14,899 nucleotides of DNA from a filamentous cyanobacterium CCT1 (GCA_003017855.1 PYER01000155.1:1-14899), one strand, 5' to 3'; numbered from the stretch's first letter, positions 6,755-12,672 are shown. The notes: generated from the letters alone by a model not told the origin. Program-made: numbers and translations.

Positions 6755-7103
6755 TGGTTTCTTTACTGCACTGCCAAAGTCTGCCAGCGATTCTAGCCTA
6801 AAGCAGCGATCGCTGAGCAGAGAATTCAGGTTTTGATTGTAATTTCATCGGCTGCGTCATCCATAACCAGGGTTCGCCCAATCGACCATCCAGACGAGGC
6901 CCGAGATTGGGCCAGGGTCAGAAGGGCTTTCCAAGCCCTATGGAGTCTAAGCCCCGCACCATTGATAACTGGGGTATTGAGCTGCTCACCCGCGACCTGG
7001 TGCCGCGCCACAGCCTAGATCCTTTTTCCGGAACCTCTTCAAATGACGGTGTTAGACTCAGTAGGAGATTTCTGTACTGCCTCTGCTATCTGGAGTTTTC
7101 GTA

Positions 7104-7607
7104 ATGGCCTTTGACCGTCTTGCGGATGTTCAAGCTAACCTAACAACACTTTATGAACAGCTGGCAGGTAAGGAACAGGCTTTTCTCCTAGCGGAAGAAG
7201 CAGAAAAGGTTCGGATTCAGCAACAGATTCGCTTAACTTGGCAACGGATACATAAGTTTGAGCACGAATATGCTACCACGTTAGGCCAGCAAGTTAAGCG
7301 GCAGGCTTTACAAGAGTCTCAAGCAGAGATCATCATAGCAGAACTAGTAGATGAGATTGAAATTTTAACCCCGCTACAGAAGAATGATGATGTCAAAGTG
7401 TTGCTGCAGCAAATCTTGCAGGAGCTACAGAAGCCAGAGTTGCCAGCTTCGGCCAAGCTGAAAGTAGCGATTCCGATTATTCCTCAGGTCGTGAGCTACG
7501 AGATAGAGGGTGACACGGAAGGTGTTTTACGGCAACTATTTCCAACCTTCGTAAAGGTGTACGACAATCTGAAACTACTTACTTCACCAGATGAGGGAAA
7601 AAAGTAG
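7104..7607 (+). CDS. All-helical / coiled-coil-like small protein; candidate N-terminal module or partner of the downstream NB-ARC NTPase
   Basis: 167-aa ORF with an ATG start and GGAG 8 nt upstream (7092-7095). It is AT-rich like the downstream gene. Heptad-like charged/hydrophobic patterning extends over about 110 aa (LTTLYEQLAGKEQAFLLAEEAEKVRIQQQIRLTWQRIHKFEHEY...). A more hydrophobic segment follows (KLKVAIPIIPQVVSYEIEG...LFPTFVKVY). The ORF ends at the A_AAA_AAG TAG site. Confidence 0.7.
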   Translation: MAFDRLADVQANLTTLYEQLAGKEQAFLLAEEAEKVRIQQQIRLTWQRIHKFEHEYATTLGQQVKRQALQESQAEIIIAELVDEIEILTPLQKNDDVKVLLQQILQELQKPELPASAKLKVAIPIIPQVVSYEIEGDTEGVLRQLFPTFVKVYDNLKLLTSPDEGKK

Positions 7608-7660
7608 TCGCCCTTGATACTGACCTTACCGGGTCAAGGGCAGTTGCAAAACAGGTAGGG
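7598..7660 (+). promoter_or_regulatory. Candidate -1 programmed ribosomal frameshift cassette (slippery heptamer, spacer and stem-loop with possible pseudoknot)
   Basis: Zero-frame codons are GGA AAA AAG TAG, so A7598 AAA AAG7604 is an X_XXY_YYZ heptamer identical to the dnaX/IS911-type A_AAA_AAG. The -1 frame has TGA at 7592-7594 and is then open through 7679 to 11428. A 5-nt spacer is followed by an 8-bp stem GCCCTTGA (7610-7617) / TCAAGGGC (7634-7641). Loop bases CCTTACC (7624-7630) can pair with GGTAGGG (7654-7660). Confidence 0.45.
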
Positions 7661-7678
7661 GCAAGTAACCGTTCACCT

Positions 7679-10600
7679 TTGAATCCTGGTGCACCTTTTC
7701 CCAAAGTGCGTTTGCCCGAGAACTTTGTAGCTCGCCCTGATGCTTTGAATGCTGTGAAGGCAAAGCTTCTGGCAAAAAATGAGCAAATGCTTGTAGTGAG
7801 CGCAATCGCCGGTTTAGGAGGACTTGGTAAATCTGTCTTAGCAGCAGCGTTGATATTGGACTTAGAAGTACAAGAGCGATTTGCAGATGGTATTTTGTGG
7901 GTGACGTTGGGACAAAACCCTGACTTACAGACAATGTTAGGAGATTGGATTCGGGAATTAGACAAATCACGGGATGCGTTTAGCGCGAATACGCTTGAGG
8001 CTGCTTCGCGATACTTACACAACCTTTTGATAGAGCGGCGAATGTTGCTCGTCGTTGACGATGTGTGGAATGCAACTCACGCAGAGTGGTTTCGAGTTGG
8101 GGGTGTAGGGTGTCGAGTTTTAGTGACGACTCGAGAGGCTCAACTTGAGGGAGCTGAGTACTATTCATTGGATTTGATGACTGAGAATGAAGCTGTTGAC
8201 CTAGTACGCCAGAAGCTAAAACATGTGTGGCGACCGGAAGAGGAACATAAGGTTAGAGACTTTGCAAAAGTTTTAGGGTATTTACCTTTAGCATTAGATT
8301 TAGCCACAAACCAAGTTCGGCATGGACTCAGTTGGGCAGATTTAAAGGCGGAATTTGAGGCAGAACGGCGAGCCGTTGCCTTAGGAGCCGGACGAAGATC
8401 GCGAGCGATTACATTATTGGACTCTTTGGAAGCTTGGGACCGCCTAGATGAGAACGAGCAACGTAATTACAGTTTGCAAGCTTGTTTCAACTTAAGTTTA
8501 AACCGCTTAAACAAGCTACAGTTAAAGCAGTTCGCTTGGTTAGGAGTGCTCCCCGAAGACGTAATTATCACGGGAACAACAGCAGCAGTTCTGTGGGATG
8601 TACCGCTCATTCAAGCAAAAAGAATCTTGGCTCTGCTGCGAACACGTTCTTTCTTAACTGATGGAGTGGTAACTTTTGAAAATGAGCTGACGTATCGAGT
8701 ACATGACTTGATGCATGATATTGCACGCTGCCTCATTGAAGAGGACACCCTTCAAGTCAAAAGCCTTGATCTTGAGTCTAAAAACTGTTTTCAAATAGCA
8801 CACTGCCACTTTCTTGATCGCTATCGTAATTTGGCAGCATATGGATTATGGGAGAAGTTACCCAATGATGGCTATATCCATCGGCATTTAACCTGGCATA
8901 TGGTGCAAGCAGGATTAAATGACGAGCTCCATCAATTGATGTCAGCAAGCAATGAATATGGACGAAACGCTTGGTTTGAAGCATGTGAGCAAGTTGGGCA
9001 ACCCGCAATTTTTGTAGACGATGTATCTCGAGGATGGAAATTAGCTGAGGAAGAGTATTATAACCAACCCTCTAAGTCACTTATCCTGCAGTGCCGTTAT
9101 GCTTTGGTGACAGCAAGCCTTCATAGCTTGGTTGAGCAAGTGCCTGCAAATCTGATGTCAGAATTCATGATGCGAGGATATTGGACGCCAGAGCAGACTT
9201 GGGCGTATGTAGAACAAATACAAGATGACCAGAGAGTTTCTGAAGCGATAGTAGCTCTCGCTCCTTCTTTACCAGAGTATATACTCAATTTAGCAGTTAA
9301 AAAAGCTCATCTAATCCAAAATAAGTATAGAAAAGCCCTTGCTCTAAGCTCTCTGGCTCAGATCAAGCATTCTATATTTCCGGATGCTTCAAGAGCCGTA
9401 GATGAAATTCGAGATGAGTACTGTCGCGCATTTGTTTTATGTACACTTACTCAAATTTCTGGTATTAGTTTTACACAGCGCCAAAAGCTATCAGAGATCG
9501 CAAGTAGTTTCCAAAATAAAGAGTATCAAAGAAGAGCTTTAAATTGTCTAAATAGTATCAGAAAGACTGATTCTAGCTGTACTCAAGAGAGTTCGCCTGA
9601 ATTTAATCTATTTAAAAATTTTTCCACTCCTGATACTGATTTCGCGAGCTCCAGCTTTAAATTTCTTCTTAAGCAAGCCAAAGAAACAGATTTCGGATAT
9701 CCCCGTGCATGTTTACTGAGCGCGTTAGCCAAACACGAAGATGCTGATTTCACACAATTGCTAGAAGTGGCACGTTCCATCAGGGATGAAAACGAATTTG
9801 CATATACACTGAGTAAATTAGCTAAGCTTAACCATATCTATTTTGAGGAGGCATTCAGGGCAACAAAGCTCATAACAGACAGCTACAGATATAAACATAT
9901 TTTTCGTGCATTATCTCAGGTTCAGGGTGCAGATTTTACACGATTGTTCGAGACGGCGCAAAAAATCTCAAACTTTTCTGACCGTAGCGACGTACTATGT
10001 GAGCTAGCTCGTATGGAGTCTGCTAGCTTTATGCAGTTGCTTGAGGCGGCGCAAAAAATCTCAAATTTTTCTGACCGTAGCGATCTACTATGCGAGCTGA
10101 CTCACATGAAGTCTGCCGACTATACTGTTCTCTTAAAAACAACACAGGAACTCTTCAAAGAAACTGTCTTTTCAAAAAAACAGAATAGACAACCCAGCAG
10201 TTACTTAAATAGAATTTTTCGGACGCTAGCAAAGATGAAGTCTGCTAACTTTTACCAACTTCTCAAGCTAGCACAAAAGCTTCCTGCCGCTGATCGCGGC
10301 GAGATGATATGTGCACTAGCTCAGATGGAGTCTGCTGACTTCAACCAACTACTCAAATTAGCACGAGAAATTCCTGCCGCTGATCGCGGCGAGATGATAT
10401 GTGCACTAGCTCAGATGGAGTCTGCTGACTTCAGCCAACTACTCGAATTAGCACGAGAAATTCCTGCCGCTGATCGCGGCGAGATGATATGTGCACTAGC
10501 TCAGATGGAGCCTGCTGACTTCAACCAACTACTCGAATTAGCACGAGAAATTCCTGCCGCTAAACATAGCGACGTGCTATGTGCATTATCTCAGATGGAG

Positions 10601-11428
10601 TTTGCTGACATTAATCAATTAAAAAAGGCGGCAAAAAGACGAAAGATTTCTGACCCGGAGTTATTTCTTTTCCTAGCCCGTCTAAAATCAGAAGATTTTA
10701 ATCGGCTCTTGGCAACAGCACAAAATGCCCTGAATCTCTCCGATCATCCGGAAGTGTTGTGTGCGTTGTCTCAAATGGAGTCTGCTGATTTCAGCCAACT
10801 ACTCAAACTTGCGCGCAAAATTCCTGCGTCTAGGTGCCGTGAGGTGTTGTGTTCATTGGCTCGGATGGAGTCTGCTGACTTCAGTCAATTGCTTAAGCTA
10901 GCGCAAAAAATTTCGAATCCTTATGACTATTGCAAAGTGTTGAGTGCTTTATCCGACTTAAATTCAGCAAATTTTACTCAATTATTAAGGGCCGCGCAAA
11001 ATTTACAGGATGAAAGAGAATTGAGTAATTTGTTAGTCCAACTAGCCAAAAAGGAAGCGGTAAATTTCATTGATCTATTAGAATCAATAAAGCTTATTCA
11101 GGACGAAATGATTCGTGCGAATGTCTTAATTGAAATAGCGTGTAGAGTATCATCCTCTTTGTTGGACAAAGCATTTCAGGTTGTAGATTCCATAACACAC
11201 AGGCCTACTGGAGCAAAAGTGATTAGTAGTTTAATTGCTTGTCCTACTAACGTTATCAAGACTTATGCTGACTGGCAATTTTCTTTAAATCTTCTTTCCT
11301 GCCGAAAACGTTCAGAGCTGATGCAAGACATTGTTTCTCTGCATTATGTCATCACATATTTTAGTGGAGAGGAAACGATGAACGGTATCGTCGATGCTAT
11401 GCGAGAAGTTTGTGATCAATGGAAATAA
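7679..11428 (+). CDS. NB-ARC (Apaf-1/R-protein/CED-4 type) STAND NTPase with C-terminal helical-repeat sensor; NLR-like protein
   Basis: 1249-aa ORF. NB-ARC motifs occur in canonical order: P-loop GLGGLGKS (7811-7834), RNBS-A-like FADGILWVTLGQNPD, Walker B/kinase-2 LLVVDDVW (8045-8068), RNBS-B RVLVTTRE, GLPL-like LGYLPLAL (8276-8296), RNBS-D-like CFNLSLNRL...FAWLGVLPED, and MHD-like VHDLMHD (8699-8719). An Apaf-1 HD2-like segment follows (YIHRHLTWHMVQAGLNDELHQLM...NAWFEA), then about 20 repeats of 30-31 aa. The annotated start is a TTG with no convincing Shine-Dalgarno element. The first in-frame ATG (7787) is only 8 codons before the P-loop, so the real N-terminus is uncertain (see the frameshift cassette). 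Confidence 0.9.
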   Translation: MNPGAPFPKVRLPENFVARPDALNAVKAKLLAKNEQMLVVSAIAGLGGLGKSVLAAALILDLEVQERFADGILWVTLGQNPDLQTMLGDWIRELDKSRDAFSANTLEAASRYLHNLLIERRMLLVVDDVWNATHAEWFRVGGVGCRVLVTTREAQLEGAEYYSLDLMTENEAVDLVRQKLKHVWRPEEEHKVRDFAKVLGYLPLALDLATNQVRHGLSWADLKAEFEAERRAVALGAGRRSRAITLLDSLEAWDRLDENEQRNYSLQACFNLSLNRLNKLQLKQFAWLGVLPEDVIITGTTAAVLWDVPLIQAKRILALLRTRSFLTDGVVTFENELTYRVHDLMHDIARCLIEEDTLQVKSLDLESKNCFQIAHCHFLDRYRNLAAYGLWEKLPNDGYIHRHLTWHMVQAGLNDELHQLMSASNEYGRNAWFEACEQVGQPAIFVDDVSRGWKLAEEEYYNQPSKSLILQCRYALVTASLHSLVEQVPANLMSEFMMRGYWTPEQTWAYVEQIQDDQRVSEAIVALAPSLPEYILNLAVKKAHLIQNKYRKALALSSLAQIKHSIFPDASRAVDEIRDEYCRAFVLCTLTQISGISFTQRQKLSEIASSFQNKEYQRRALNCLNSIRKTDSSCTQESSPEFNLFKNFSTPDTDFASSSFKFLLKQAKETDFGYPRACLLSALAKHEDADFTQLLEVARSIRDENEFAYTLSKLAKLNHIYFEEAFRATKLITDSYRYKHIFRALSQVQGADFTRLFETAQKISNFSDRSDVLCELARMESASFMQLLEAAQKISNFSDRSDLLCELTHMKSADYTVLLKTTQELFKETVFSKKQNRQPSSYLNRIFRTLAKMKSANFYQLLKLAQKLPAADRGEMICALAQMESADFNQLLKLAREIPAADRGEMICALAQMESADFSQLLELAREIPAADRGEMICALAQMEPADFNQLLELAREIPAAKHSDVLCALSQMEFADINQLKKAAKRRKISDPELFLFLARLKSEDFNRLLATAQNALNLSDHPEVLCALSQMESADFSQLLKLARKIPASRCREVLCSLARMESADFSQLLKLAQKISNPYDYCKVLSALSDLNSANFTQLLRAAQNLQDERELSNLLVQLAKKEAVNFIDLLESIKLIQDEMIRANVLIEIACRVSSSLLDKAFQVVDSITHRPTGAKVISSLIACPTNVIKTYADWQFSLNLLSCRKRSELMQDIVSLHYVITYFSGEETMNGIVDAMREVCDQWK
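9236..11240 (+). repeat. Intragenic array of about 20 degenerate 30-31-aa alpha-helical (HEAT/ARM-like) repeats, the sensor region of the NB-ARC protein
   Basis: The recurring consensus is D/N-x-x-x-R-x-x-v-L-C-A-L-a-q-M-E-S-A-D-F-x-Q-L-L-k-L-A-q-k-I, read along the translated ORF. Examples are SDRSDVLCELARMESASFMQLLEAAQKIS, ADRGEMICALAQMESADFNQLLKLAREIP and SRCREVLCSLARMESADFSQLLKLAQKIS. The boundaries are approximate. Confidence 0.8.
10281..10550 (+). repeat. Three near-identical tandem 90-bp units inside the sensor repeat array
   Basis: TTCCTGCCGC recurs at 10281, 10371, 10461 and 10551, a period of 90 bp or 30 codons. The units 10281-10370, 10371-10460 and 10461-10550 differ pairwise at only 2 of 90 positions by hand alignment. 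Confidence 0.92.
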
Positions 11429-12133: not shown

Positions 12134-12358
12134 TCAGGCCGCATAACGACGGATTTCAACCTCGGCACCGCTGGCAATTGCTTCTTCTGCCCGTTCCAGC
12201 AGATCTCCAGTTACCTCATCACTGAGGTAGTACTCACCACAGTTTTCGCAAACCTCAGCAGGTACTCGTTTAAACACGACGATGGCTCCCTCCCGGTCTA
12301 AGGTGACCGTTACCAGCCCGGCCTGGGTTTGTCCTTGTTTGCAAATCACACAGTTCAT
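12134..12358 (-). CDS. YgiT-type (MqsA-like) zinc-finger protein, putative antitoxin
   Basis: 74-aa ORF with two CxxC pairs (CVICKQG ... CENCGE) and the typical layout MxCxxC..G......tvtl.r.g..vv...VPA.VCxxCGE.Y. Its ATG overlaps the stop of the upstream DUF4258 gene (ATGA, 12355-12358). Confidence 0.82.
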   Translation of the reverse strand: MNCVICKQGQTQAGLVTVTLDREGAIVVFKRVPAEVCENCGEYYLSDEVTGDLLERAEEAIASGAEVEIRRYAA

Positions 12359-12672
12359 GGTTGTTTCCGAGTTTTGAAATCAGGTTGCCACAGGTTTAGA
12401 TCCGGTTCATAGGCAGTAACGACATAAGCAGTCTGTGTGTCAGCATCCATTGCCGCTACAACATGAATCGGCCGCTGATTTACTACCCTCAGCATAAGAT
12501 AGCTGGGATAAGGGCGATCATTGGGATATTCGGCGATCACTTCCCCTTCAGCCAGAACTGCCTTAACTTCGTCTCGGCTAATCGTGCGCTGAAACATCTG
12601 TTTAATGGCATGACCTGAGAAAACGAGCGTTTGATAATCCACCCTGGCTGATAATCCATAGAGGGCACTCAT
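12355..12672 (-). CDS. DUF4258 domain protein, putative toxin of a type II toxin-antitoxin pair
   Basis: 105-aa ORF matching the DUF4258 pattern: FSGHAIKQMFQRTISRDEVKAVL..GEVIAEYPNDRPYPS.L.L....RPIHVV.A.D.....YVVTAYEPD...W..DFKTRK. It has the canonical gene order and 4-bp overlap with the zinc-finger partner. Confidence 0.8.
   Translation of the reverse strand: MSALYGLSARVDYQTLVFSGHAIKQMFQRTISRDEVKAVLAEGEVIAEYPNDRPYPSYLMLRVVNQRPIHVVAAMDADTQTAYVVTAYEPDLNLWQPDFKTRKQP

Follow-up and report, generated by a model that had tools for sequence, protein, structure and literature searches.

Programmed -1 ribosomal frameshifting is known from few cellular bacterial genes, for example dnaX, copA, csoS2 and chlD. 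In the IS3 family, full function belongs to the fusion protein and the short protein serves as its partner or regulator, and the lambda G/GT site is G_GGA_AAG. This heptamer and A_AAA_AAG are both documented as shift-prone; the former is shift-prone in E. coli and is also the g-t site of an archaeal virus (PMC5009743). The locus that we describe here resembles E. coli dnaX, in which A_AAA_AAG is followed a few nucleotides (nt) downstream by a stem-loop and two products sharing their N-terminus are made at a set ratio (PMC5009743; PMC3711429). It lies in a 14,899-nt stretch of DNA from the filamentous cyanobacterium CCT1 (GCA_003017855.1, PYER01000155.1:1-14899), hereafter the window, and consists of a small open reading frame (ORF1) of 167 amino acids (aa) followed by a long one (ORF2) coding for an NB-ARC nucleoside triphosphatase (NTPase). 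From sequence comparison we propose, with a probability of roughly 80%, that an A_AAA_AAG heptamer joins ORF1 and the NB-ARC ORF by programmed -1 ribosomal frameshifting.

ORF1 ends in GGA AAA AAG TAG (Table 1). The -1 frame carries a TGA at 7592-7594 and is then open for 1277 codons (from 7595) to 11428. A frame switch can thus fuse the two ORFs only within 7595-7604, as a preliminary description of this locus had pointed out; its coordinates for the heptamer, the ORFs and the -1 frame all proved correct when rechecked on the sequence, and translation gave the fusion length that it had announced, 1441 aa (167 + 1274). ORF2 is the -1-frame portion of this predicted fusion, whose junction would read ...SPDEGKK followed by VVALDTDL.... 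The predicted junction peptide is K/KVVALDTDLTGSR, and the tryptic peptide VVALDTDLTGSR is encoded at 7604-7639 in the -1 frame, 5′ of the TTG at 7679 from which ORF2 is annotated.

Support for programmed recoding comes from comparative evidence and not from the window alone. We fetched 42 loci and defined the core family by at least 45% identity to ORF1. The 90 clusters of close ORF1 homologues are all small and none is fused to an NTPase. In their alignment KK is conserved at the C-terminus, behind a linker whose length varies; KK or GK C-termini, some with 1-2 extra residues, are found in 80/90 close and 60/144 remote clusters. The heptamers fall into an A_AAA_AAG class (18 distinct loci, including one C_AAA_AAG, one A9G and two A7G) and a G_GGA_AAG class (8 loci). 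In every A- and G-type locus the heptamer lies 0-2 codons 5′ of the ORF1 stop, which follows immediately in most core loci. The sequence is xxA AAA AAG in 17/18 A-type loci though the preceding residue differs (G, Q, S, P, A, R, K), and xxG GGA AAG in all eight G-type loci, with GGA for Gly after a codon ending in G. At invariant ORF1 residues, by comparison, synonymous sites vary: Lys is AAG 182 times and AAA 99 times, G136 is encoded by each of the four Gly codons, and 23% of the codons at such residues elsewhere have A in third position. Judged from these alignments, the heptamer is fixed at the nucleotide level beyond the need of the protein sequence.

The reading phase points the same way. 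At 20/21 loci, the long downstream ORF is in the -1 phase, despite linkers whose length up to the first conserved NTPase motif varies from 7 to 49 codons and despite differing partners. Since no phase preference is expected of independent genes, this bias speaks against independence. The alignment of orthologous loci, which the preliminary description had called for, thus came out in favour of recoding: close relatives are never single fused ORFs, and they keep the heptamer, the open -1 frame and a covarying stem.

This stem begins 5 nt past the heptamer. The perfect 8-base-pair (bp) helix that had been noticed in the window (7610-7617 with 7634-7641) is present, and U7618-G7633 extends it to 9 bp. 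When the region was folded, as had also been suggested, the 41-nt hairpin stood out (-17.1 kcal/mol, z = -2.74, with equally stable folds in 3/200 shuffles) but the 91-nt region folded whole was unremarkable (z = -0.66), the significance being confined to the hairpin proper. A-type loci carry a hairpin of -14 to -21 kcal/mol with the same onset, 5 nt past the heptamer. In a 15-locus alignment, 93% of the cells of the 9-bp helix are paired and six of its nine pairs show double (compensatory) changes; none of 500 shuffles matched the observed values and slid controls reached only 30-49% pairing. RNAalifold independently recovered the same 9-bp helix. The proposed H-type pseudoknot stood in part. 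In the window alone, its helix (7624-7630 with 7654-7660) has 7 bp, including one G-U, with a shuffle p of 0.044. A search for the best loop-to-downstream helix placed the partner at +12 to +14 nt after stem 1 in 8/15 A-type loci, with complementary sequences that differ from locus to locus; examples of these covarying pairs are CCTTACC/GGTAGGG, CCCCACAG/CTGTGGGG, AGGCTCAC/GTGGGCCT and GCCTACT/AGTAGGC. The A-type loci without a partner at this fixed position have extended 12-13-bp hairpins instead. Rfam gave no match at E <= 1 within 7400-7900. The hairpin was also considered as an intrinsic terminator, which is ruled out because there is no terminator-like site or T-run. A dnaX-like Shine-Dalgarno (SD) stimulator about 10 nt 5′ of the heptamer is not conserved across the loci compared: GAGGG adjoins the heptamer only in the window and in L028/L029, and is absent from L031, L006, L016, L001 and others.

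By comparison with homologues, the region between the shift site and the annotated start of ORF2 is coding. As had been noted, the TTG at 7679 lacks a clear SD element: within the 25 nt 5′ of it there is no GGAG, GAGG or AGGA. It is not conserved either, the closest relative (L029, ORF1 84% identical) having TTA at this position. Across loci, the first ATG, GTG or TTG in the -1 frame ranges from codon 1 to codon 49, frequently past conserved peptide, and in the sequences compared no start codon is conserved for the downstream NTPase ORF. The linker itself has counterparts inside uninterrupted proteins. Its end (..SP) starts the motif SPLKPGAPFPRVRLPENFV, which is internal in in-frame homologues, and its part NRSPLNPGAPFPKVRLPENFV matches KSPLKPGAPFPRVRLPENFVER, an internal linker that in-frame NB-ARC homologues have behind an EAD4, TIR, caspase or trypsin domain. 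KSPLKPGAPFPRVRLPENFVER lies at residues ~50-290 of these homologues, and beyond residue 100 where a sizeable N-terminal domain precedes it; the trans-frame peptide NRSPLNPGAPFPKVRLPENFVARP of the window is the same motif, with its onset 5′ of the TTG. Moreover, 55/98 NB-ARC homologues have more than 85 aa before the Walker A motif, compared with ~48 aa for an ORF2 initiated at TTG. By eye, the only comparison made, the EAD4 N-termini of the NB-ARC homologues look unrelated to ORF1.

In profile searches, the ORF1 family comprises at least 298 clusters at 50% identity, and in-frame fusions are few among the 298. Two of them carry NTPases of families also seen in the -1 frame. P0132 combines an ORF1-like domain with AAA_16 and TPR, the NTPase family being that of the -1 ORFs of L007, L022 and L039. 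P0117 combines it with nSTAND1, as in the -1 ORF of the remote locus L042, which reads GAA AAA AAG TAA and has a -23.5 kcal/mol hairpin and a 706-codon -1 ORF. A further fusion, P0228, combines it with TIR. Past the junction, the -1 ORFs code for NB-ARC, NACHT-HEAT, nSTAND5-TPR, nSTAND1 or TPR-only proteins, or are short and have no Pfam match, and this diversity indicates that the ORF1 domain and the frameshift signal behave as one module. Altogether, sequence comparison establishes the signal and its phase, the RNA structure, that the linker is coding and that relatives have in-frame fusions.

Several observations weigh against this reading. AAAAAAG occurs three times in the window against 2.97 expected; since this is chance frequency, the locus of the window alone proves nothing, and the heptamer is significant because of its phase, its position in the sole 10-nt stretch permitting fusion and its conservation in relatives. 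In the G-type loci, a common stimulatory structure was sought in 7 sequences and none was found. L033 has the imperfect heptamer C_AAA_AAG and the NTPase of L030 is in the +1/-2 phase. Other loci keep the heptamer or KK with only a short -1 ORF, namely L023 (32 aa), L040 and L020 (63 aa), L004 (159 aa) and L008 (170 aa), the NTPase of L020 being broken. L041, coding for a DUF8370/DUF8371 protein, ends in GCG AAA AAG TGA (G_AAA_AAG) and has no -1 ORF; from such an ending, KK may also serve a protein-level role, or such loci may be decayed. A GTG or TTG comes soon after the stop in L002 and L017 (codon 1) and in L042 (codon 7), so that independent initiation is possible at those loci. Finally, distant ORF1 relatives (31-38% identity) lack the heptamer and are organised as two separate genes, with an ATGA overlap, an ATG 2 nt past the stop, or GGAGA and then ATG. 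Covalent fusion is thus not universally required. Such ordinary junctions, which the preliminary description had named as a pattern that would speak against recoding, are present in this distant subfamily and absent from close orthologues, and this restriction makes the contrast with the heptamer loci informative. The exceptional loci weaken the universality of the arrangement, not the case for the site of the window.

The last three of these points favour the view that ORF1 and ORF2 are independent genes, as do the gene callers, which annotate two genes at all loci. Here ORF1 would stop at TAG, ORF2 would be initiated at TTG 7679 or by termination-reinitiation, and KK and the hairpin would be there for other reasons: as a C-terminal signal of the protein, for example, or to stabilise or process the mRNA or to control where ORF2 is initiated. 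We consider this unlikely, as it leaves unexplained both the fixation of xxA AAA AAG and xxG GGA AAG next to variable synonymous sites and the -1 phase; besides, neither a start codon nor an SD is conserved, the conserved linker peptide is coded 5′ of any start, and the start of ORF2 is 71 nt distant, behind a -17 kcal/mol hairpin.

That the two ORFs are expressed as one would also follow if RNA polymerase added one A to the A6 run, the resulting fraction of A7 mRNA encoding the fusion. Such slippage is known on A-runs, as on the A9 of Thermus dnaX (PMC3711429), and the A-type sites are homopolymeric, with A9 in L008 and A7 in L030 and L042. Nevertheless, A6 is short, the cited sites having n > 7 (PMC3711429), and the G_GGA_AAG subfamily has only A3, on which this mechanism is impossible. 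The strict X_XXY_YYZ phase is irrelevant to a polymerase, whose slippage requires no stem either, and a conserved, covarying stem or pseudoknot at 5 nt is a hallmark of ribosomal shifting. Transcriptional slippage may contribute at the longer A-runs, and as the explanation of the junction it seems improbable to us. We give even less credit to a broken gene, that is a single fused gene that has lost 1 nt, was missequenced in its A-run or is switched on and off by a phase-variable A-tract, which the preliminary description had offered as its alternative. Remote relatives do have in-frame fusions of the domain to STAND NTPases, and indels occur elsewhere in the gene in L003 and L006. Nonetheless, not one of the 90 close homologues is fused, the same out-of-frame state with A6 recurs in more than 25 independent isolate and metagenome assemblies, and in one subfamily G_GGA_AAG replaces the A-run. 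Neither A6 nor G_GGA_AAG makes a good slipped-strand tract, close relatives show no mixture of on and off alleles, and conservation extends to the stop behind the heptamer, to the stem and to the phase.

Programmed -1 frameshifting being the reading that we retain, it would proceed as follows. Ribosomes translating ORF1 would reach 7598-7604 with tRNA-Lys in the P and A sites, and the stem-loop or H-type pseudoknot 5 nt downstream would resist unwinding. The adjacent TAG may further slow the ribosome and thus act as a 'shifty stop' enhancer. Most ribosomes would terminate there and release the free 167-aa helical protein. A fraction would slip back one base (AAA AAG to AAA AAA), continue with GTA GTC GCC ... 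and produce the 1441-aa protein, in which the ORF1 domain would form the N-terminal module of an NB-ARC/repeat STAND (NLR-like) NTPase. We infer the slippage itself and its efficiency, and with them a fixed ratio of free module to full NLR. By analogy with Gag/Gag-Pol or lambda G/GT, the ORF1 domain could be an adaptor- or effector-type module whose free copies would co-assemble with the sensor-tethered copy upon oligomerisation of the NTPase.

The model of ORF1 is an all-alpha domain of six helices with a confidence score (pLDDT) of 78.6. Foldseek comparison of this model with the PDB gave no match at E <= 0.001, only generic helical bundles, and ORF1 matches no Pfam, NCBIfam or PADLOC model; its sequence is that of a hypothetical protein from filamentous cyanobacterium CCT1 (100% identity). 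ORF2 has an NB-ARC match (E = 3.6e-23) with the Walker A sequence GLGGLGKS, a weak APAF1_C match, and C-terminal helical repeats, none of which is matched by a Pfam repeat model. ORF2 therefore has a STAND/NLR-like architecture of the NB-ARC clade: NB-ARC with Walker A, a helical domain and C-terminal repeats. An effector or adaptor domain would precede these on one polypeptide only if the frameshift takes place. Its 90-nt tandem repeat (10226-10609) lies within a longer array of ~30-38-aa helical repeats (...ADFxQLLxLA...) in the C-terminal part, and this array may be a fast-evolving sensor. PADLOC models match neither ORF1 nor ORF2, which places them in no known anti-phage defence family (Avs, bNACHT and the like), and for this reason a defence role is put forward by analogy only.

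Table 1. Features of the ORF1-ORF2 junction and of its two ORFs, in coordinates of the window
Feature	Coordinates	Strand	Description	Basis
Shine-Dalgarno-like GGAG	7092..7095	+	8 nt 5′ of the ORF1 ATG, at -12	
ORF1	7104..7607	+	zero-frame product, all-helical, 167 aa	ORF call, predicted structure, family searches
Slippery heptamer A_AAA_AAG	7598..7604	+	last two ORF1 sense codons and third base of the preceding codon; X_XXY_YYZ phase	
Trans-frame linker	7604..7678	+	25 codons, VVALDTDLTGSRAVAKQVGASNRSP; no ATG/GTG/TTG	-1-frame translation
Zero-frame stop TAG	7605..7607	+	adjoins the heptamer; terminates the free 167-aa product	
Spacer	7605..7609	+	5 nt, heptamer to stem 1	
Stem-loop	7610..7641	+	stem 1, 7610-7618 with 7633-7641, 9 bp, 14-nt loop	folding and covariation
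Proposed H-type pseudoknot stem 2	7624..7660	+	loop 7624-7630 (CCTTACC) with 7654-7660 (GGTAGGG)	
ORF2 as annotated	7679..11428	+	TTG start, 1249 aa: NB-ARC NTPase, APAF1-like helical domain, C-terminal helical repeats	
Tandem repeats	10226..10609	+	90-nt unit, 4.3 copies, 90% matches, inside the presumed sensor repeats of ORF2	

The window, which is chromosomal DNA of a cyanobacterium, also encodes PsbU, FolD, a polyprenyl synthase and a flavoprotein. Beyond the NLR-like gene, on the - strand, a DUF4258 protein (12355-12672) and a small ORF (12134-12358) overlap by 4 nt; this gene couple (12134-12672) looks like a toxin-antitoxin pair. Inside ORF2, a second in-phase A_AAA_AAG is found at 10621-10627. 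It is probably due to chance, because the -1 frame closes after 8 codons and no structure follows (-5.9 kcal/mol).

Some of the other loci have features of their own. In Oculatella sp. FACHB-28 (L030:5480-5560), the ORF1 relative ends in CAA AAA AAG TAA (A7G), the loop of the stem is 1 nt shorter and the NB-ARC ORF has 1425 aa; the A7G would possibly permit a perfect -2 tandem slip, the alternative being an indel. The -1 ORFs of L008:6440-6960 (A9G) and L004:6480-6880 extend 165 and 133 aa past the shift site and have no Pfam match, that of L008 being strongly acidic with a hydrophobic, transmembrane-like tail; they may code for small effector partners. In L023:5481-5530 and L040:3867-3910, G_GGA_AAG and a stop are followed by long perfect hairpins (22 bp and -35 kcal/mol in L023) and no long -1 ORF, and these may be decayed loci, insertions or terminators. 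In L003:6440-6600 (P0058), an upstream G8 run shifts ORF1 into the '-1' frame before the heptamer, so that the called protein reads ...TTKKVVTGYS... and ends 34 aa on; the cause is either a natural indel or a misassembly, in a locus that has decayed. In the subfamily of L037:5001-9265 and L038, ORF1 is extended N-terminally by HEAT (240 aa), the NACHT protein that is its -1 partner has HEAT repeats as well, and the first -1-frame start comes 49 codons past the shift site. SNF2 helicase, NACHT, caspase-GUN4, STAS-LRR-Roc-COR and SEFIR/TIR proteins (P0103, P0166, P0180, P0181, P0197) have an ORF1-like domain as their very last part, and many family members built in this way end in KK; among them, L041 (see above) is the one that was inspected as DNA. 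Finally, in Trichodesmium erythraeum IMS101 (NC_008312; L011:6440-6640, also L010 and L025), a distant ORF1 relative ends in ACC UUU UUU CGG AAA UGA. The 1239-aa NTPase ORF of these loci lies in the +1 frame, which does not open until 26-32 nt before the stop, and has its first ATG, GTG or TTG at codon 43-46, after a conserved LPLSDISTFTGRRDEL motif. This site is a candidate for +1 recoding (UUU_C with rare CGG; UUU_UUC_GG) or -2 recoding, or for a pseudogene.

On a wider scale, we suggest tentatively, at slightly less than even odds, that the ORF1 domain and its -1 signal form a portable 'recoding junction' that has been shuffled onto at least five partners (NB-ARC, NACHT-HEAT, nSTAND1, nSTAND5-TPR and TPR-only) in filamentous cyanobacteria, where it would hard-wire the ratio of free to tethered adaptor for an NLR-like immune or cell-death machine. 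Its variants would include G_GGA_AAG, possibly a -2 form (Oculatella, L030) and possibly a +1 form (Trichodesmium). If this wider suggestion is true, recoding would be a general design principle for a class of bacterial NLR-like receptors.

We found no published -1 frameshifting for STAND/NLR genes in the searchable literature. A 2016 review of recoding (PMC5009743) and the 2013 GeneTack survey (PMC3711429) mention no NACHT, NB-ARC or NTPase cases, and the word 'frameshift' is absent from the 2020 (PMC7159879) and 2021 papers on conflict systems. Recent STAND papers mention frameshifting for phage tail chaperones only, and prfB is the only site reported in a 2026 screen for RNA structures of cyanobacteria. 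The mechanism is canonical; the gene family and biological setting are new as far as the literature was searched. If the frameshift that we propose is true, hundreds of cyanobacterial pairs annotated as a 'hypothetical protein' and an N-terminally truncated NB-ARC or NACHT protein would be mis-annotated single recoded genes, and a new, widespread adaptor-like domain would be defined. The locus would then also offer a natural case of ribosome-fixed stoichiometry between a free N-terminal module and the full receptor, which bears on how NLR-type oligomers recruit or seed downstream partners. Moreover, this recoding family would come with its own natural experiments, as it has two heptamers, a hairpin in some loci and a pseudoknot in others, fusions in frame and relatives with separate genes.

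The shift in E. coli dnaX yields a truncated protein, and the one proposed here would instead extend the 167-aa protein by 1274 aa; the dnaX type described as 'long product by frameshift' (PMC3711429) resembles the present arrangement. Also unlike dnaX, there is no conserved SD-like stimulator, the zero-frame stop adjoins the heptamer, the pseudoknot is found in about half of the loci, and the gene family is unrelated. The OrfA-OrfAB organisation of IS3-family elements (IS911/IS150) shares with our locus a small upstream ORF, a large -1 ORF, A_AAA_AAG at the end of the small ORF and then a stem-loop or pseudoknot. However, there is no transposase here and there are no inverted repeats, the context is chromosomal and of housekeeping type, and the partner is a STAND NTPase that varies by locus. 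In multicellular bacteria, Bell/BASS and HET-S/NWD2-type pairs have a gene for a small helical protein directly 5′ of an NLR-like gene and have given rise to the idea of templated or co-assembling signalling. Their gene order resembles that of ORF1 and ORF2, the link being translational here; no amyloid motif was seen to be shared between the C-terminus of ORF1 and the N-terminus of ORF2.

The G-type loci are comparable to lambda G/GT, in which G_GGA_AAG also ends a small ORF and long and short forms share an N-terminal domain and act together. Phage G/GT-type sites often have no stimulatory structure (PMC5009743), and this is also the case for the G-type loci, which have none in common. In contrast to lambda G/GT, the gene is cellular and non-phage, and the proteins are unrelated. 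As to its possible role, the ORF1 domain recalls the effector-associated domains (EADs) of multicellular bacteria, in which one adaptor is shared by core systems and effectors (Kaur et al. 2020, PMC7159879). Indeed, ORF1-like domains adjoin STAND NTPases and are fused to TIR, SEFIR, caspase, Roc-COR and SNF2, and in close NB-ARC homologues the same position is occupied in frame by EAD4, TIR or caspase. An assignment of ORF1 to EACC1 was rejected, EACC1 being a single-transmembrane domain (PMC7159879) and ORF1 a soluble-looking six-helix domain. Unlike the EADs, ORF1 matches no Pfam EAD model, its six-helix domain is larger, and it would be joined to its partner by recoding rather than by fusion or as a separate gene.

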